In this document: positions 4,507 to 64,000 of the stretch, piece by piece
Position numbering within the stretch: the stretch's first letter is position 1
Layout of the letters: every line of letters begins with the position of its first letter
Source of the DNA: an uncultured Bacteroidales bacterium
Lineage (GTDB): Bacteria; Bacteroidota; Bacteroidia; Bacteroidales; UBA3824
DNA: 64,000 nucleotides
Assembly (NCBI GenBank): GCA_946624925.1
Contig: CAMOSO010000021.1
Location: 30 to 64,029, forward strand
Direction: 5' to 3'
Translations under genes and position numbers: made by a program
Notes under the pieces: generated by a model
Seen by the model: only the letters and a program-made list of their open reading frames with translations
Told to the model about the DNA's origin: nothing
Databases searched by the model: none

Positions 4507-4544
4507 ACATCAATTGAACCGCCGCCTACGGCGACGGGATTTTT

Positions 4545-4755
4545 ATAAACGAAAATTTAAGCGAATAAAAAAAAATTAAAACGAATTTAAAAGGAATGTC
4601 CTGACGGACAGAAATTACACAAATCAATACAAATCTTTCAAATAAATATTTGTTTGATTTGTAATGATTTGTTAGATTTCTCGCGAAGCGACCTACCATA
4701 ATATCGCGAAGCGATATAAAAAAATTCGTTATAATTCGCTTAAATTTTCGTTCAA
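4545..4755. repeat. Nested palindromic intergenic element between pta and ackA, a member of the dispersed repeat families
   Basis: Outer perfect inverted repeat aacgaaaatttaagcgaat / attcgcttaaattttcgtt. The inner part is an inverted copy of modules seen at 24710-25290 (ggaatgtcctgacggacagaaat; agatttctcgcgaagcgacc; atatcgcgaagcgata). Confidence 0.7.
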
Positions 4756-4806
4756 AAAACAACGCCGTAAGGCGTTGACAAACAGATAATTATTGTAAAC
4801 AAAGAA

Positions 4807-6009: not shown

Positions 6010-6019
6010 TTGTTTTTTC

Positions 6020-6140
6020 AAACGCGAATTAAAGCGAATTATAACGAATTTTGGACGAATTACAAAACTAATTCGCTTTAATTCGTTGTAATTCGTTTTA
6101 ATTTTTGTTTATAAAAACCCGCCGTAGGCGGCGTGTAATT
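6020..6140. repeat. AT-rich 'aattcg' palindrome plus CCGCC-loop-GGCGG hairpin (dispersed repeat family)
   Basis: cgaattaaagcgaatta / taattcgctttaattcg perfect inverted repeat, then aaaaacccgccgtaggcgg. Confidence 0.65.
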
Positions 6141-21331: not shown

Positions 21332-22984
21332 TTATTGCCGCGAAATATATTCGTTATACCTCGTAATCAGCGCGTTATAAAACATTTTGGCGATTGCGTT
21401 TGCGCCGTTGGGATTGAAATGCACAAAATCTTTCTCTGCCAACGGCGGGTCGTGAAACACCCAATCGGGCATTGTGTTGTAACCGCCCATCGCCTCATAC
21501 ATATCCCAATATGCGCAATCGTTTTGGAGCGCGGCTTCCTTCAACAACCTGTCCAGTTCGGGCAAAATTTCGTATGTAACATACTCATCCTGAACCTTTA
21601 CGCTCATATCGGCGGGACCAATCAAAATTATTGAAACTCCGGGGCAAATCCGCTTCAAATATCTGATTTGGGAGGCGAGGTAATTCTTGAAAGCAACAAC
21701 ATTGTTTTCATTGAGCGACGGCACGGCATTGCCGCCAAACTGCAAGATGATGCACTTCACATTCAAATCCCTCAACATTCCGCCGAGGTGTGCGGCGTTC
21801 ATTTTTGTGAAAATCGTTCCCGAACAGCCGCGCAGGGCGATATTATCGACGGCAACACCGCTCAATCCGTCCATTGAAAATCCGTAAAATTCCGGGCTGT
21901 CCGCGCCTGAAAATTCCATCTTGAAAACTTCGGGCGTCTGTGCAAAATTCCACGTCTTTACGGAGTAGAAGTCGTTGGGTTTCAATGAATCAGCATACAA
22001 AATAGTCTCGCCGTCCATCACGCGGACATTGCAAGTGCGGGTGTGGTTGCCATAAAACATCCGCACCTTCTTGATGGTCTTTGCATTGCCGTATCCATAC
22101 TTGAAAGGGCGAAATTCCAACGACGCATTATAAATTTTTTCCGGCTCTCGGGGCTTGTTATCGGGTGTTTTGAAGACGGAATCCAACGCCACAACCACCG
22201 GCAACGAATCTGACGACGACGACGCCGCTGAATCCGGCTGTTGCAATGGCGTAAGGGAAGCGGGAGGCGTGGATTTTGGTTCGCGGTTGATGATTGGCGT
22301 AAACTTGGCAAACGCCGCCAACGCTCCATACTTGGAATGATGGACGGCAGTATCAATGAATGGAAAAATCGTGTAACGTTTCCAATCGCCGGTGCAGACA
22401 ACCTCACAAGGTGCTTTGTAGTCGTAGGCGGTTTTGGCAGGCACGAGACCGGGGCCCGAACCGCCAAATTGCTGTTGCAACTTGTATCGCAAATAACCGC
22501 TTATTCGGTCGGTTTCTATCTGAGAATCACCATAATGCACAATGCGAACAACCTTGGCGAGTTCGTCGGGATTGGTCAACGCATCAAAAAGCGTTTTTAA
22601 GCATCCCAAACCCGACGCAGGCAAATCCAACGGCTGCCGAAGGCTCTCAACACTTATTGGACGCGGTTGGAAGGCATACACCGACGAATCGAATGTAGGC
22701 ACGCCGCTCATATCAGCCACTTCCAACGTATCTTCCGCGTTTTTGGAATCGGCGACTGAATCAGACTGCGCCGCGCCATTTTGGTCTTCCTCCACGAGTT
22801 CGGGAATGAAAGCATTGCCGCCAACTTTGTCTTTGCTGCCGCCCTCCCACCATTCCTTCAACGTCGGAAAATACAGCGTCAAATCAGAGGACACACTGAT
22901 GCCATCTTTTGGAAATATCGTCATCAATATCGCCAAAAGAGCCATTACAGCAATGATAAAGCATAATGTGGCAACGGGTTTCAA
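21332..22984 (-). CDS. SGNH/GDSL-like hydrolase with N-terminal membrane anchor
   Basis: 550 aa; VHYGDSQIETDRISG, LQFGGN, GPADMS motifs. The track start is a TTG inside the 9-bp repeat, so the true start is uncertain. Confidence 0.7.
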   Translation of the reverse strand: MKPVATLCFIIAVMALLAILMTIFPKDGISVSSDLTLYFPTLKEWWEGGSKDKVGGNAFIPELVEEDQNGAAQSDSVADSKNAEDTLEVADMSGVPTFDSSVYAFQPRPISVESLRQPLDLPASGLGCLKTLFDALTNPDELAKVVRIVHYGDSQIETDRISGYLRYKLQQQFGGSGPGLVPAKTAYDYKAPCEVVCTGDWKRYTIFPFIDTAVHHSKYGALAAFAKFTPIINREPKSTPPASLTPLQQPDSAASSSSDSLPVVVALDSVFKTPDNKPREPEKIYNASLEFRPFKYGYGNAKTIKKVRMFYGNHTRTCNVRVMDGETILYADSLKPNDFYSVKTWNFAQTPEVFKMEFSGADSPEFYGFSMDGLSGVAVDNIALRGCSGTIFTKMNAAHLGGMLRDLNVKCIILQFGGNAVPSLNENNVVAFKNYLASQIRYLKRICPGVSIILIGPADMSVKVQDEYVTYEILPELDRLLKEAALQNDCAYWDMYEAMGGYNTMPDWVFHDPPLAEKDFVHFNPNGANAIAKMFYNALITRYNEYISRQ

Positions 22985-23017
22985 TTACTTCAATTACTTC
23001 AATTACTTCAATTACTT
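22982..23017. repeat. Perfect tandem 9-bp repeat x4 (AAGTAATTG on the coding strand) spanning a stop/start junction
   Basis: caattactt x4 on the plus strand. On the minus strand it reads AAG-TAA-TTG four times, in frame with both flanking ORFs. Confidence 0.9.
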
Positions 23018-24673
23018 CTTTCTAATTTTAATGACTTGTCCAATCTGCAATCTGCGGACGTCGGTGGCACTGAACCCATTGATGGTCATAATGTCCTTGT
23101 CCGAAATGCCAGGATAGTGAGCGGCGATTGAACTAAGATTGTCGCCCTTGCGGATTGTGTAATATTCGTATTTCGGATCGAGATTTTTGCCAGCCGCCTT
23201 GCTCGACTGCACAATTTGGTTGCTTTTGAGAGCCTGTTTTTGGTCAAAAGTCATATTGTCGATGTTCTTGTACGAATTGAGCTTTTTGGTGGGGACATAG
23301 ACGGTGATTTTTTGACCGACATTGATGCGGTTGCCCACAACATTGTTCCAACATTTGACCTTGTTGACCGAAACATCGTACCAATTGGCGATAAAACCAA
23401 ATGTATCGCCCTGTTTTACAGTGTAAATCAACTTAGACGTACCGGCGGGGACGCTATTGTCGCAGGGTTCGGGTTCATAATAACGACCGCTGCGAGCCGA
23501 TGACGATGTGCGCGTGGTAGCCTGTTGCAGGTATGCCTGAGCGTGTGTTGGCGCAAAGAAAATCGAATCCTGATAAGCATAAATTTCTTTCTCCTTCTCG
23601 GCAAACCTCTCCGCAAAATCGCCGGGCAGCCTCAATGTAGAATGTTTTACGTCGCCAGGGATGATGTCTTTCTTGTATTGAGGATTGAGGTCGCGGAGTT
23701 CCTCGACCGAAATGCCAAGCACGCCCGACACCTGTCCGAAATGCAACTTGTTGGTAATCATTACAGTATCGGAATAAGTCGGCACATTAACGTCGATGGG
23801 TTTGTAGCCGTGAGCCTCGTAATTGTTCATAAGATAATTGACACTAATGAACGCCGGAACGTAGCCACGGGTCTCCTTGGGCAACCACGGATAAATCTCC
23901 CAAAAATCGGTTTTGCCGCCTGAACGACGGATTGCCTTATTGACATTGCCGGGACCGCAGTTGTAGGCTGCAATCACAAGTGCCCAATCGCCATACATTC
24001 CGTACATATCTTTGAGGAGTTTTGCGGCGGCGATGGTCTCCTTGTCGGGGTCGCGACGCTCATCGACAAGCGTGGTAACTTCGAGGTCGTACATCCTGCC
24101 CGTGCCGTACATAAACTGCCACAATCCAGTTGCGCCCGCACGTGATACGGCGCGAGGATTGAGGGCTGATTCCACGATGGTCAAGTATTTCAATTCCAAT
24201 GGGATGTCGTATTGGTCGAGCACTTCCTCAATCCTTGGAAAATAATATTTGGACAATCCCAAAAGCGTGGGTATCAACAATTTGCCACGGCGGAGGTACA
24301 TCTCAATCCAATCCTTCACCTTCTGATTATAGACGAGGGGGAATGTGGTCGGGATTTTTTTCAATGCAGCCTCATAAATCGAATCGGAGAAAAATACAGG
24401 CGTATTTTCATTGGCGATTGCGTGGTTTGACTCGGCGGTGTTGATGGAATTTTTTACATAGCCGAGAGACATCAGGCTGTCGATGCCGTCTATTACCTGA
24501 CTTTCTTCTGTCGCCAATTCAGATGCCGAATTGGTAACAGCGGGTACTATGAGCGTATCCGACTCTTCATCTTCGTCGTATTCAGGCGCGGGAGCCATCG
24601 GGTCGGGTTCTTGTGCCGACACAATGCCCACGCAACATATCAGCGGCAAAAATGCTAAGAATATCTTTTTCAT
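23012..24673 (-). CDS. Lytic transglycosylase (MltD-like) with LysM repeats
   Basis: Signal peptide; SLT-type segment ESALNPRAVSRAGATGLWQFM; two or three C-terminal LysM-like repeats (YTVKQGDTFGFIANWY, YTIRKGDNLSSIAAHY). Confidence 0.85.
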   Translation of the reverse strand: MKKIFLAFLPLICCVGIVSAQEPDPMAPAPEYDEDEESDTLIVPAVTNSASELATEESQVIDGIDSLMSLGYVKNSINTAESNHAIANENTPVFFSDSIYEAALKKIPTTFPLVYNQKVKDWIEMYLRRGKLLIPTLLGLSKYYFPRIEEVLDQYDIPLELKYLTIVESALNPRAVSRAGATGLWQFMYGTGRMYDLEVTTLVDERRDPDKETIAAAKLLKDMYGMYGDWALVIAAYNCGPGNVNKAIRRSGGKTDFWEIYPWLPKETRGYVPAFISVNYLMNNYEAHGYKPIDVNVPTYSDTVMITNKLHFGQVSGVLGISVEELRDLNPQYKKDIIPGDVKHSTLRLPGDFAERFAEKEKEIYAYQDSIFFAPTHAQAYLQQATTRTSSSARSGRYYEPEPCDNSVPAGTSKLIYTVKQGDTFGFIANWYDVSVNKVKCWNNVVGNRINVGQKITVYVPTKKLNSYKNIDNMTFDQKQALKSNQIVQSSKAAGKNLDPKYEYYTIRKGDNLSSIAAHYPGISDKDIMTINGFSATDVRRLQIGQVIKIRKK

Positions 24674-24709
24674 AATTTATTAAACAATTGTTTTTCAACT
24701 ATTTTTTTT

Positions 24710-25290
24710 ATCGCTCCGCGATATTGTTTGGGGTCGCTGCGCGAGAAATCTTACAAATCTTTTCAAATCATACAAATCTTTAATTCTTTACAAATCCTAA
24801 AAGATTTTGAAAGATTTGTATAGATTTGTTAGATTTCTGTCCGTCAGGACACCCAGTTTTCAAAGAATGTTCGCAAGGACATTCTTTGTGAATCGCTACA
24901 CTATGTTTATCGCTCCGCGATATTTTTGGGGTCGCTGCGCGAGAAATCTTACAAATCTTTTCAAATCATACAAATCTTAAATTCTTTACAAATCCTAAAA
25001 AGATTTGAAAGATTTGTATAGATTTGTAAGATTTCTGTCCGTAAGGACACCCAGTTTACAAAGAATGTTCGCAAGGACATTCTTTGTAAATCGCTACACA
25101 ATGTTTATCGCTCCGCGATATTGTTTGGGTCGCTGCGCGAGAAATCTTACAAATCTTTTCAAATCATACAAATCTTAAATTCTTTACAAATCCTAAAAGA
25201 TTTTGAAAGATTTGTATAGATTTGTAAAATTTCTGTCCGTCAGGACACCCCGTCTTGAAGAATGTCCGAAAGGACATTCTTTTTTTATCT
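24710..25290. repeat. Three tandem ~198-199 bp units of a multi-hairpin repeat
   Basis: Units start at 24710, 24909 and 25107 and are over 90% identical by eye. Each contains atcgctccgcgat, gtcgctgcgcga, a 17-bp inverted repeat AGAAATCTTACAAATCT/AGATTTGTAAGATTTCT, tgtccgtcaggaca, and aagaatgttcgcaaggacattctt. Confidence 0.9.
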
Positions 25291-26001
25291 AAATGTCAAT
25301 ACAATGCGCGCACCAAATACCGGCTTGGTTTCAAAACTGAATTTTGGCTCGGTGGCATATGGCTCTACACGCAGTGCAAGGTCGTCGGTAACGTTGTAAT
25401 CGTACAAATGCGCATCGACCACAGCGTCAAATATGTTCATCATATAGACAAGAAACATACCAAGATAACACAAATCCCTGTAACGGCGATACTTGCGCAT
25501 ATAACGCACAATGTCGTTTTCTGTAGTCAATCCATAAAAACTATGCCCATTGTAGGTAGAATCGCCGGCTTGCATCGCGAGGAGGTAATGCTCGTCGTTT
25601 TTCAATTGTTTGTAACGGACATTATAAAACTGCGACACATATACCAACGTGCCAATGCCGCCATAAATAATCGGCACTTTCCAATATTGACCGTTATAAA
25701 CCTGCCCCGCACCCGGCAAGGCACACGAAAGCCAACCGGCAAGTTTGGGATTTTTGGTGATTTCCTTCACAGAATCTTCCTCGGCGGTGAGGGTGCTGTC
25801 GTTGACCAAATCGTAATTCTCGCCCTCGTCAAAACTGATGCGCGGCGGCATCGTATCGACTCTGCCTTCACGGTATCCTTGCTGCACGGCAGGGTCGTCG
25901 AGGTCGGGCGTCTCCGCGTCGGGCTCCTGCGCCGAGGCTACGTGCGACATTGCCGTCAAGATAAACAAAAAGGCGGTCAGAAATATCTTTTGGGCGGTCA
26001 T
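25285..26001 (-). CDS. DUF5683-like membrane/periplasmic protein, conserved partner of parAB in Bacteroidales
   Basis: Signal peptide then GWLSCALPGAGQVYNGQYWKVPIIYGG motif; position immediately downstream of parB. ATG at 26001 preferred over the TTG at 26010. Confidence 0.65.
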   Translation of the reverse strand: MTAQKIFLTAFLFILTAMSHVASAQEPDAETPDLDDPAVQQGYREGRVDTMPPRISFDEGENYDLVNDSTLTAEEDSVKEITKNPKLAGWLSCALPGAGQVYNGQYWKVPIIYGGIGTLVYVSQFYNVRYKQLKNDEHYLLAMQAGDSTYNGHSFYGLTTENDIVRYMRKYRRYRDLCYLGMFLVYMMNIFDAVVDAHLYDYNVTDDLALRVEPYATEPKFSFETKPVFGARIVLTFR

Positions 26002-26010
26002 ACGGCTCAA

Positions 26011-26976: not shown

Positions 26977-26995
26977 TGGTCTATAAGATTAAAAA

Positions 26996-27098
26996 GTTGA
27001 TAGTTTAATGTTGATAGTTGAAAGTTGAAAGTTGAAAATTGAAAGTTGAAAGATTAAAGATTTCAATTTTCAATTTCTAATTTTCAATTTCTAATTTT
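26996..27098. repeat. AT-rich heptad-repeat palindrome between parA and parB
   Basis: gttgaaa(g/a) tandem heptads on the left arm pair with tttcaattttcaatttc on the right arm (ttgaaaattgaaa / tttcaattttcaa). Confidence 0.7.
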
Positions 27099-30898: not shown

Positions 30899-30993
30899 AA
30901 AAGTTTCCTTAAAAAAAGGAAACTTTTTGAAAATCTTTCCTTCAAAAAAGGAAACATTTTCAAAATCTTTCCTTCAAAAAAGGAAACTTTTCC
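30899..30993. terminator. Three tandem 'tttcctt-A6-aaggaaa' hairpins downstream of the 31007-39906 operon
   Basis: aaaagtttccttaaaaaaaggaaactttt, then two copies of aaaatctttccttcaaaaaaggaaac; each is T-rich after the stem on the minus strand. Confidence 0.6.
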
Positions 30994-31006
30994 AAAAAAA
31001 AATTAC

Positions 31007-40015: not shown

Positions 40016-40098
40016 TAGGGACGCGGCGCGCCACGTCCCTACGTTGGAAATAATTAAACCAATTTACGTCCCTACGTTGGAAATAATTAAACCAATTT
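40016..40098. repeat. GC-cored hairpin plus perfect 33-bp tandem direct repeat x2 in the divergent promoter region
   Basis: gtagggacg-cggcgcgcca-cgtccctac hairpin; acgtccctacgttggaaataattaaaccaattt at 40033-40065 and again at 40066-40098. Confidence 0.85.
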
Positions 40099-41005: not shown

Positions 41006-41029
41006 CGGCGTTTGAGGGTTTTTGAACAA

Positions 41030-41175
41030 AAATTAAAACGAATTTAAATAAATTAATACGAATTTTTTTCTATCCAAATTTGAAAGATTTGGTAGATTTT
41101 TTTAAGGTAATTCGTTTAAATTCGTTATAATTCGCTTAAATTTGCGTTTAAAAAAAACCGCCGCAAGGCGGCATC
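41030..41175. repeat. Composite dispersed repeat ('aattcg' words, 'gaaagatttg' words, CCGCC-GCAA-GGCGG hairpin)
   Basis: aattcgttataattcgcttaaatttgcgtt is near-identical to 4727-4756; aaatttgaaagatttggtagattt resembles the 24.7 kb array; ends with aaaaaaaaccgccgcaaggcgg. Confidence 0.6.
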
Positions 41176-46210: not shown

Positions 46211-46360
46211 AAAACGGGCGTAATCGACTAAAAAATCGTCGATTCCGCCCGTTTTCTCATCAATCTGGGCGGAATCGATTAAAAAATCGTCGATTTCGCC
46301 CATTTTCTTATCAATCTGGGCGGAATCGATTAAAAAATCATCGATTTCGCCCATTTTCTT
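46211..46360 (+). terminator. Three tandem ~50-55 bp hairpin units (stacked terminator-like structures) after metY
   Basis: aaaacgggcgtaatcgac-taaaaaa-tcgtcgattccgcccgtttt, then two copies of gggcggaatcgat-taaaaaa-tc(g/a)tcgatttcgccc followed by attttct. Confidence 0.75.
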
Positions 46361-63344: not shown

Positions 63345-63462
63345 ATTTTGTGTTATTTGAATAGATTTGTAAGATTTCTGTCCCAACGGGACACCGAAAC
63401 GGGGAGCCGCCTACGGCGGGAAATCTTACAAATCTTTTCAAATCTTACAAATTTTTCAAATC
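63345..63462. repeat. Dispersed repeat copy (AGATTTGTAAGATTTCT ... GAAATCTTACAAATCT enclosing two GC hairpins)
   Basis: 17-mer at 63363-63379 pairs with 63420-63435; the loop holds gtcccaacgggac and ccgcctacggcgg hairpins. Confidence 0.55.
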
Positions 63463-63464
63463 TA

Positions 63465-64000
63465 TTAGTGAATAGTCCTTGCCTTGCCGTCCTTGAAAAT
63501 CAAGTATTCCAAAGTGTGGAAGCCACGGAGACCCTGAGCGGATGCAATTTCCTGTGCGTGCTGGGAGCCTTCCTCGCCATCGGGAATTTCCTCAAAGTCG
63601 CCCGACCATTCGAGGTCTGCCCATGCGGCGGTGTTGAATACTTTCACGATGCCAGTGAGGTCAAGCGGCCAGGAGTCCATGTTGGGGTCGAGACCCTTGT
63701 CGGCAACGGGACCAAAGAGGAATGCTTCGGAAGATTCCCACGGTTTGCGGGCACTGAGCCAAGCGTCAGCACACTTTTGGAAAGCATCGTTTGAGGGATT
63801 TTTCTCAAATTCTACAACAGCATTGTAGAGAGCGGTGTTGTTCTCCGAAAGTTCCTTGTATGTGGGGAGTACAACGTTGTCAACATACTGATCGAGAACG
63901 GGTTGCCAATCAGCTTCGGCAAGGTCGCCGTTGATGATGCCCTTCACCTTGTTGGTGAGGATGTCGCGGAGTTCCACACACTTTTCGATTGCGGTCTGCG
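63465..64000 (-). CDS. Imelysin (peptidase M75 / IrpA-like) family protein, C-terminal part; N-terminus lies beyond the window
   Basis: The frame stays open to position 64000; AWLSARKPWESSEAFLFGPV and LDPNMDSWPLD are imelysin motifs; adjacent to a DUF1111 gene as in known imelysin loci. Confidence 0.75.
   Translation of the reverse strand, partial: QTAIEKCVELRDILTNKVKGIINGDLAEADWQPVLDQYVDNVVLPTYKELSENNTALYNAVVEFEKNPSNDAFQKCADAWLSARKPWESSEAFLFGPVADKGLDPNMDSWPLDLTGIVKVFNTAAWADLEWSGDFEEIPDGEEGSQHAQEIASAQGLRGFHTLEYLIFKDGKARTIH

Follow-up and report, generated by a model that had tools for sequence, protein, structure and literature searches.

A three-unit repeat array in a Bacteroidales parAB operon is probably built from gene-less miniatures of GxxExxY nuclease cassettes

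Introduction

The repetitive extragenic palindromic (REP) sequences of Enterobacteria and Pseudomonas, together with bacterial interspersed mosaic elements (BIMEs) and hairpin-forming REP doublets (REPINs), are short intergenic palindromes in which two inverted modules form a longer hairpin and which gather in mosaic or tandem clusters. In systems that pair REPINs with a REP-associated tyrosine transposase (RAYT), inverted modules flank a small gene for a nucleic-acid enzyme, most copies lack the gene, and the stems covary. Here we describe a repeat with these same traits in a 64,000-nt stretch of DNA ("the window") from an uncultured Bacteroidales bacterium (GenBank assembly GCA_946624925.1, contig CAMOSO010000021.1, positions 30 to 64,029 of the forward strand), where three tandem units lie between the DUF5683 and SLT genes of a parA-parB-DUF5683-SLT operon. 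The units belong to a dispersed repeat family and share their ends with cassettes that carry a GxxExxY gene, deletion intermediates connect the two forms, and the insertion at this operon is polymorphic among relatives. We consider it probable (about 0.68) that the array consists of tandem copies of a non-autonomous miniature, resembling both REPINs and MITEs (miniature inverted-repeat transposable elements), which derives from a GxxExxY cassette by internal deletion of the gene and sits in the operon as a selfish, tandemly amplified insertion.

By analogy, REP/REPIN sequences with their RAYT gene are the closest known system in logic. The gene associated with the present family encodes a PD-(D/E)XK protein of the GxxExxY type (PF13366), however, and not an HUH/Y1 IS200-like transposase (PF01797). 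Whereas a REP has a GTAG head and a GC-rich palindrome of 20-40 nt, the modules here have a GGAG/NNAG head and hairpins of 11-16 nt, followed by AT-rich runs of iterons spaced 9-10 bp apart that REPs do not have. The host phylum is also different (Bacteroidota), and mobilisation by the gene product is something that we infer here. MITEs share with the family a small size, non-coding and AT-rich sequence, intergenic location, inverted ends, multiple copies, hairpin formation, internal short repeats and an origin by internal deletion.

The array units belong to a dispersed repeat family

The array occupies positions 24707-25282 (Tandem Repeats Finder: period 198, 2.9 copies, 94% matches, score 1022) and reads on the plus strand as unit 1 (24707-24905, 199 bp), unit 2 (24906-25103, 198 bp) and unit 3 (25104-25290), the last of which ends after its final hairpin, without the linker. 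A sequence-only reading that preceded our analysis had described tandem units of about 198 bp that are more than 90% identical, and the pairwise identities bear this out (97.0% between units 1 and 2, 93.6% between 1 and 3, 92.5% between 2 and 3). It had also set the array apart from clustered regularly interspaced short palindromic repeats (CRISPR), rightly so, because what repeats is the 198-bp unit in its entirety, with the sequence that separates its palindromes, and there are no unique spacers. An identical three-unit array is present in a second public assembly, which elsewhere has 43 differences from the window in 21662 positions (99.8% identical overall); a fault in a single assembly therefore does not explain the array.

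Each unit holds a core of 112-134 nt that starts with GGAG or GGGG and continues through a GC hairpin, CAAATC iterons, inverted GATTTG iterons and a second GC hairpin to a closing CTCC or CCCC. The general layout is GGAG, T-(GC stem-loop)-A, GAAATCTTACAAATC..., loop, ...GATTTGTAAGATTTC, T-(GC stem-loop)-A, CTCC; that is, two inverted modules, each made of GGAG, a GC-rich hairpin set between T and A, and then GAAATCTTA/CAAATC iterons about one helical turn apart (spacing in the arms is 9 bp in 166 cases, 10 bp in 113 and 11 bp in 30). The window cores follow this order from a closing GGGG through a first hairpin (hp1), the CAAATC arm, the loop, the GATTTG arm and a second hairpin (hp2) to a closing CCC. 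One of their ends carries a TCGC-type hairpin and the opposite end a TGYCC-type hairpin, each of which abuts GAAATC / GATTTC directly. This combination of end types is found in 58 of 67 non-identical gene-less elements, and the element therefore has a fixed polarity.

We built a covariance model, R1, from 29 family members. It scores the three window units at 106-114 bits: 111.8 for the core of unit 1 (24725-24858, E 5.5e-23), 113.9 for that of unit 2 (24923-25056, E 1.9e-23) and 106.1 for that of unit 3 (25121-25254, E 1.1e-21), with the opposite strand about 30 bits lower (77.6 bits for unit 1). In rumen Bacteroidales contigs that add up to about 1.3 Mb, some 80 distinct elements match R1 at E<=1e-6, each of which typically scores on the other strand too. 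Relatives of unit positions about 34-145 were found by blastn in many metagenome-assembled genomes of rumen Prevotellaceae and other Bacteroidales. We picked relatives in this way after a scan of genome contigs with a 15-nt pattern returned mostly chance matches among those listed; in a metagenome scan with an 18-mer, most of the matches listed came from element-bearing contigs. Among 31 viral contigs containing a 17-mer, there was no R1 match at E<=1e-8 and so no evidence for a phage link.

The sequence-only reading had held that units unique to this locus would speak against it; copies in fact occur at other places in the window as well as in many rumen Bacteroidales. A unit-derived probe of 37 nt has a fourth match at 63419 (0.00 expected by chance), and shorter probes mark pieces at 4665-4718 and 41076-41099. 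One of these copies is a single full core on the minus strand at 4590-4700 (R1 103.2 bits, E 5e-21), which lies inside a nested palindromic intergenic region. The copy at 63360-63470 on the plus strand (R1 about 25 bits) is rearranged into a GATTTG arm, hp2, spacer, hp1 and CAAATC arm, an arrangement that is the junction type found between tandem units and that also occurs in contigs L220 and L190. On the plus strand at 41070-41100, probe matches and sequence reveal a remnant with GATTTG iterons only.

Family members nearly always lie between genes: 57 of 58 fall outside long open reading frames (ORFs) when these are called crudely, and 54 of 58 with codon-scored calls. Tandem arrays are present elsewhere in the family (L220, 169 bp x 2.6; L209, 181 bp x 2.3), so tandem amplification recurs in it. 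The window units are themselves extended elements with an extra hairpin at each end (hpA, which resembles hp1, and hpD, which resembles hp2) followed by a short linker, and the extended element occurs singly in other contigs (L181 and L236).

Related palindromes were seen alongside the family. The entire intergenic region at 4507-4806 of the window is a nested palindrome with a GC hairpin at each edge, in which outer inverted repeats (aaacgaaaatttaagcgaat / attcgcttaaattttcgtt) enclose inner CGAATT-iteron repeats and a central CAAATC-family element. A second family of iteron palindromes, with (A/G)CGAATT repeated four to five times and then inverted AATTCG three to four times, is found at 6018-6126 (R1 29.9 bits), and iterons of this kind also form outer layers at 4540-4760 and 41020-41140. 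Four relatives (L129, L162, L189 and L019, in the last at about 1880-1920) carry a conserved insert of about 21 nt, GGCTACGCCGAGCTAAAGGTT, between the last GATTT iteron and hp2, which may be another small nested module.

Cassettes with a GxxExxY gene share the ends of the miniatures

The same two modules flank an ORF in L122, L132, L169, L220, L190, L237, L123, L055 and L183, where they stand about 450 nt apart. In gene orientation the cassette reads GGAG-TGTCC-TTCG-GGACA-GAAATCTTACAAATC..., 10-20 nt, ATG...TAA, ...GATTTGTAAGATTTC-TCGC-GAA-GCGA-CTCC. Its polarity is that of the miniatures, with the TGYCC-type hairpin upstream of the gene and the TCGC-type hairpin downstream. The 141-aa product matches PF13366 PDDEXK_3 (E 4.5e-33) and TIGR04256 GxxExxY (E 5e-35) and no other family, and 25 homologues show no variation in either the D...ELK motif or the GxxExxY glutamate. 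Because gene orientation runs opposite to the plus strand in the window core, the missing gene would point the same way as the flanking operon.

Intermediates between the two forms are preserved. An internally truncated ORF lies between the modules in L148, and miniatures in L220 and L127 keep the first codons of the ORF in their loop (MDLIAEH... and MNLITEY...), from which we conclude that gene-less forms arise by internal deletion. L220 (3100-4200) and L190 (3300-4500) contain head-to-tail arrays that combine an intact GxxExxY cassette with gene-less units keeping its first codons. Like the window array, these recall integron cassettes and their attC sites in stringing together small head-to-tail units parted by imperfect palindromes. 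Unlike in integrons, neither an integrase nor attI was seen, an R/L-box organisation is lacking, the palindromes are the paired ends of one unit, and the copies are dispersed over the chromosome.

Because these ORF loci had been fetched by their repeat pattern, we also started a search from the protein, which yielded more than 3100 homologues at E<=1e-10; among the 120 closest homologues listed, most sit on contigs of only 0.6-3 kb. Within the close subfamily, P0009 (on L272) and P0029 (on L282) have inverted flanks of hairpin and iterons, and in L282 the iterons have diverged (AAATTTCACAAATT / GAATTTGTAAAATTT) yet match on both sides of the gene. A second GxxExxY subfamily, about 30% identical to the first, has iterons of its own, (A/G)ACAAC upstream and GTTGT(C/T) downstream, at three unrelated loci; the contigs sampled for it were L272 (gene at 1941-2366) and L305, L313 and L318 (gene at about 601-1032). 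Gene-less palindromes of ACAAC/GTTGT iterons adjoin second-subfamily genes, and some of them stand in tandem (L313).

These flanks bear on what the nuclease gene is to the repeat. The units could be ordinary MITEs moved by a DDE transposase, with the nuclease gene as a passenger or as a later insertion into the hairpin loop. In favor of such an origin, Bacteroidota genomes are rich in MITEs (PMC11602168), and one sub-family of the cores does lie inside a 158-bp element that has its own terminal inverted repeats (TCAATGTGGTGATAA) and target duplications of 9-10 bp at more than 8 sites. Those terminal repeats, however, are outside the core and absent from the window copies, and the core itself yielded no target duplication. 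No transposase-bearing parent was found either, and the only coding relatives that we did find carry PF13366, a nuclease fold that is not known to act as a transposase, in both respects unlike MITEs. The two GxxExxY subfamilies each have their own matching iterons on both sides, and such co-variation with the flanks would not be expected of a passenger gene; the deletion intermediates, moreover, run from cassette to miniature. We therefore regard an ordinary MITE as a very unlikely explanation.

Little is on record about the protein. Its sequence has no relative in PDB and no family in PADLOC or PHROGs, and the searchable literature on GxxExxY/PDDEXK_3 consists of passing mentions in which the function is listed as unknown; we found no description there of an association between GxxExxY genes and iterons or hairpins. 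We had considered a Holliday-junction resolvase, an idea suggested by the four-helix junction, and dropped it, as Hjc ranks only 23rd among the fold matches and the best are Cas4 and lambda exonuclease. Tentatively, and with odds somewhat below even, GxxExxY proteins could act as the enzymes for selfish cassettes of a class not described before, in which the gene of each subfamily lies between inverted arrays of its own iterons, set about one helical turn apart, with a GC hairpin added at either end in the close subfamily; the protein would recognise these ends, and the miniatures would be the non-autonomous members. Such a class would be a PD-(D/E)XK counterpart of REPIN-RAYT and may extend to the PF05635 ("23S rRNA IVS protein") genes, one of which has the same flank plan.

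That gene is on L272 (3700-4400), where it lies between CTACGATACG iterons that alternate with small GC hairpins and are inverted on the far side; a gene-less element of CTACGATACG iterons lies on the same contig at 1660-1760. The intervening sequences (IVS) of 23S rRNA, with which PF05635 is associated by name, resemble the present elements in being long AT-rich hairpins with or without a small ORF in the loop, and the PF05635 gene of L272 shares the flank plan of GxxExxY cassettes. They differ in the family of the ORF and in location: ours lie outside rRNA, and the loci that we fetched yielded no 23S sequence.

The insertion at the parAB operon is polymorphic among relatives

Both genes that flank the array, and lie outside the element, are on the minus strand. 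Downstream is the SLT + LysM lytic transglycosylase gene (23012-24673; PF01464 4e-28, PF01476 2.9e-24) and upstream the DUF5683 gene (25285-26010; PF18935 8.5e-43), which is itself preceded by the ParB and ParA genes. The array fills the whole of the 611-bp gap between DUF5683 and SLT, in agreement with the sequence-only reading, which had put an array of about 610 bp between co-oriented genes and had seen in it an insertion into a conserved parA-parB-DUF5683-SLT block.

We reached the orthologous loci through homologues of the SLT protein. The gap is empty in L294 (SLT 82% identical; 14 nt, TAAAATTACATGTT) and contains no element in L295/L296 (75% identical; 60-62 nt), which supports the insertion that had been proposed. 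In the closest relative (L292/L293, 93%) the gap is 146 nt and holds exactly one canonical core in the window orientation (GGAG-TGTCC-TTAC-GGACA-GAAATC...GAATTTC-TCGC-GTA-GCGA-CTCC; R1 106.7 bits). The search of related contigs for copies and for insertion polymorphism, which had been recommended at the outset, thus led to a dispersed family and to empty, one-core and three-unit states at this locus, from which it follows that the site was filled within this lineage.

A tandem, iteron-rich array immediately downstream of parA-parB-DUF5683 invites comparison with a partition centromere bound by ParB, as sopC is in F. We rejected this reading as scarcely credible. The site is empty in relatives that have the same operon, the element also occurs at loci unrelated to parAB, and its iterons are unlike parS, of which the window contains no 16-bp match within 3 mismatches.

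The operon has acquired a second lineage-specific repeat insertion: in the window, (AAAGTTG) x 8.6 and 14-bp repeats (26993-27098) fill a gap of 114 nt between parB and parA that measures only 27 nt in the closest relative, L292. Other short tandem arrays lie at 46216-46360 (51 bp x 2.8, with a GGGCGGAATCGA...TCGATTTCGCCC hairpin), 30904-30997 (32 bp x 2.9), 40033-40098 (33 bp x 2) and 22980-23018 (9 bp x 4.3), and the intergenic regions of this genome are unusually repeat-rich.

Regulatory signals probably do not account for the array

The sequence-only reading had pointed out that each unit contains TAGATTTG, a match to the TAnnTTTG promoter box, and had proposed that the array fires antisense transcripts from Bacteroidetes-type promoters on the plus strand or acts as an insulator or terminator stack between the genes. 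The match is there in every unit (24821, 25019 and 25217), on the plus strand, but the same motif occurs 83 times in the 64-kb window. In sigma-A-type promoters of Bacteroidetes, a -33 TTTG lies 19-21 nt upstream of the -7 box. No TTTG stands at that distance from any of the array boxes; the closest one upstream stops 2 or 11 nt short of the box. Within the family, TAnnTTTG is a by-product of the GATTTG iteron that is present only where the spacer reads TA, and some copies accordingly lack it.

Terminator-like sites, consisting of a hairpin and a T-run, are similarly real and are found on the plus strand only (hpA of every unit, and hpD in unit 3), where they are antisense to both genes. The gene strand of the array has no GC-rich hairpin followed by a T-run, and no TAnnTTTG is found on the minus strand of the 611-bp gap. 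With neither signal on the gene strand, SLT is most simply still co-transcribed through the array. Precedent for promoters within such repeats does exist in BrickBuilt, a MITE of Porphyromonas gingivalis, which is reported to contain bidirectional promoter elements (PMC4596501); it is a different Bacteroidales repeat, with a 23-nt minisatellite and a sequence unrelated to that of the array. The element occurs in intergenic settings of every kind, and relatives lack it at this site; we judge a promoter, terminator or insulator role highly improbable, and nothing that we tested argues for a dedicated antisense-promoter or insulator function.

Small hairpins are constrained in structure and arms as iterons

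All five small palindromes per unit that the sequence-only reading had counted are real. On the plus strand they follow one another as hpA, hp1, a long imperfect hairpin, hp2 and hpD. The first, hpA (TATCGC-TCC-GCGATA; 24709-24723, repeated at 24908-24922 and 25106-25120), is an accessory hairpin of the sub-family that resembles hp1 and is common to single-copy relatives (L181, L139, L125, L195 and L151). Next is hp1 (TCGC-TGC-GCGA; 24734-24744, 24932-24942 and 25130-25140), the helix of which is 100% paired across the family, with pairing kept in all of its stem variants (TCGC, TCGCC, TCGCCC and TCACGC). The long imperfect hairpin (24744-24838, 24942-25036 and 25140-25234) comprises four CAAATC and two to three inverted GATTTG iterons at 9-10 bp spacing, in arms of 33-37 nt that are 85-89% complementary. 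The 17-bp inverted repeat reported within it is present, though perfect in unit 2 only and with one mismatch each in units 1 and 3; the 95 nt that it was said to enclose are its total span, and the enclosed sequence is 61 nt. It is followed by hp2 (TGTCC-GTCA-GGACA, or TGTCC-GTMA-GGACA across the units; 24838-24851, 25036-25049 and 25234-25247), which is 99.5% paired across the family with three covarying pairs. Last is hpD (AAAGAATGTTC-GCAA-GGACATTCTTT; 24862-24887, 25061-25084 and 25257-25282), which reads AAGAATGTYC-GMAA-GGACATTCTT across the units; in unit 3 a T.G pair has become C-G and the loop is GAAA. Hairpins like hpD also follow hp2 in the relatives L180 and L181.

We next consider how far this structure is conserved. 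RNAalifold run on a MAFFT alignment missed hp2, which was out of register, and we replaced it with a hand-specified structure and a model-based alignment. In the best-strand alignment of 43 matches, which was fitted to the model so that pairing counts lean towards structure, 94.8% of cells in the small hairpins are paired, against 30-51% with slid partners, and seven pairs show double changes. In hp2, UA and CG interchange in 13 of 37 distinct rows. The closing stem keeps both inner pairs, with one position that is AU in 28, GC in 4 and GU in 4 and with the GGGG/CCC version of the window included. The covariation score was reached by none of 500 shuffles. A count made independently of the model agrees, in that a perfect stem of at least 4 bp abuts GAAATC at 194 of 368 module anchors, compared with 101 of 2000 random positions (5%), and these stems are of 40 different kinds.

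The arms behave in another way. Their iteron cores are invariant, and the mismatches between them comprise 40 of G:U type, 42 of A:C type and 307 others, mostly transversions in the spacers. The equal numbers of G:U and A:C mismatches and the placement of changes in spacers argue that the arms are conserved as iterons on both strands and not as a one-strand RNA helix. Orientation shows no bias: with codon-based gene calls and duplicates removed, the direction of the missing gene agrees with that of co-directional neighbouring genes in 14 cases and disagrees in 8, and 16 more elements lie between convergent or divergent genes. A bias towards co-orientation had appeared in a crude ORF count (19 vs 7, or 22 vs 7 with three misassigned window units); it fell to 14 vs 8, and we claim no bias. 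Both the mismatch balance and the orientation counts fit a DNA-level element better than a strand-specific RNA.

These data also decide how we view a cis-acting RNA exapted in the manner of REPs and BIMEs, whose hairpins in the operon mRNA would provide a place for processing, by RNase III for instance, or hold up 3' exonucleases and so uncouple the parAB-DUF5683 message from that of SLT. Unit 2 folds at -76.2 kcal/mol on the plus strand (z -10.9) and -71.2 kcal/mol on the minus strand (z -9.5), about equally on the two strands, which means that the gene-strand transcript of a unit would be stably folded. Read-through of the gap is likely, given a gene strand free of terminator-like sites and TAnnTTTG; the small hairpins covary, and the change from T.G to C-G in hpD of unit 3 keeps a GNRA loop on the plus strand. 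Against this stand the balanced arm mismatches, the lack of an orientation bias in a family that also settles between convergent and divergent genes, and relatives that do without an array at this locus. No Rfam family was matched either: at the gathering threshold the only hit is a tRNA at 45-118, and an E-value scan added only far-sub-threshold matches to plant miRNA hairpins. We consider an exapted RNA unlikely.

The most frequent hairpin of the family reads CGCGAAGCG on one strand, which we take to be the unusually stable d(GCGAAGC) DNA mini-hairpin. As a lead and not a test, this hints at a single-stranded DNA stage.

Discussion

The array is best explained as a selfish miniature whose history would have begun with internal deletion of the GxxExxY gene from a full cassette. 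In this organism's lineage, one gene-less miniature would then have inserted into the interval from the DUF5683 stop codon to the SLT start codon, and a longer version, with hpA and hpD added at its ends, would have been amplified to three head-to-tail copies, presumably by unequal recombination or slippage between the repeated modules. We propose that the predicted GxxExxY nuclease recognises the iterons, the abutting hairpins or both, and may thereby spread or maintain gene-less copies in trans. The array itself would have no dedicated host function and would be passively transcribed within the parAB-DUF5683-SLT operon.

Several observations weigh against this account. At the locus itself, the window cores have more iterons and extra hairpins than the single core of L292, so the two states fit either one ancestral insertion or two independent ones, and the boundaries of the core show neither a recognisable target-site duplication nor a defined insertion site. 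No ORF remnant can be recognised in the loop of the window units (about 21-29 nt), such remnants being found in L220, L127 and L148 only, and no GxxExxY gene was found within the 64-kb window. At two of the four close-subfamily loci found from the protein (P0076 and P0111, in a VapE...Fic context), a module or miniature is present upstream only. The AlphaFold model of the GxxExxY protein (pLDDT 87) comes nearest to Cas4 SSO0001 and lambda exonuclease, a similarity at the level of fold only (TM about 0.47). Lastly, the 158-bp MITE carries a CAAATC core as internal cargo: its terminal repeats (TCAATGTGGTGATAA / TTATCACCACATTGA) lie outside the core, its target duplications of 9-10 bp are clean, and more than 8 near-identical copies occupy different sites (L134, L140, L157, L166, L171, L172, L184, L186 and L196). 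Because clean target duplications belong only to this MITE, some of the spread may owe nothing to GxxExxY, and for some copies the nuclease gene may have been inserted into pre-existing hairpins, which would reverse the order of events.

Two further observations concern these same elements. In L198, two copies of the 158-bp MITE seem to have been joined in a recombinant or chimera. In L297-L304, close GxxExxY homologues lie between a VapE-like primase gene and a Fic gene, with a module or miniature upstream and no inverted partner downstream, a setting that looks like the context of an integrative mobile element.

The array itself, a repeat inserted within an operon, probably matters little to the cell, and it cautions annotators against taking every structured intergenic array of this sort for a regulatory RNA. 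Its interest lies in the association with GxxExxY, which ties a large uncharacterised family of thousands of small nuclease-fold proteins (GxxExxY/PDDEXK_3) to iteron and hairpin DNA ends that co-vary with the subfamily. The association with repeats also suggests why GxxExxY genes often fall on very short metagenome contigs, while gene-less copies populate the intergenic regions of rumen Bacteroidales.

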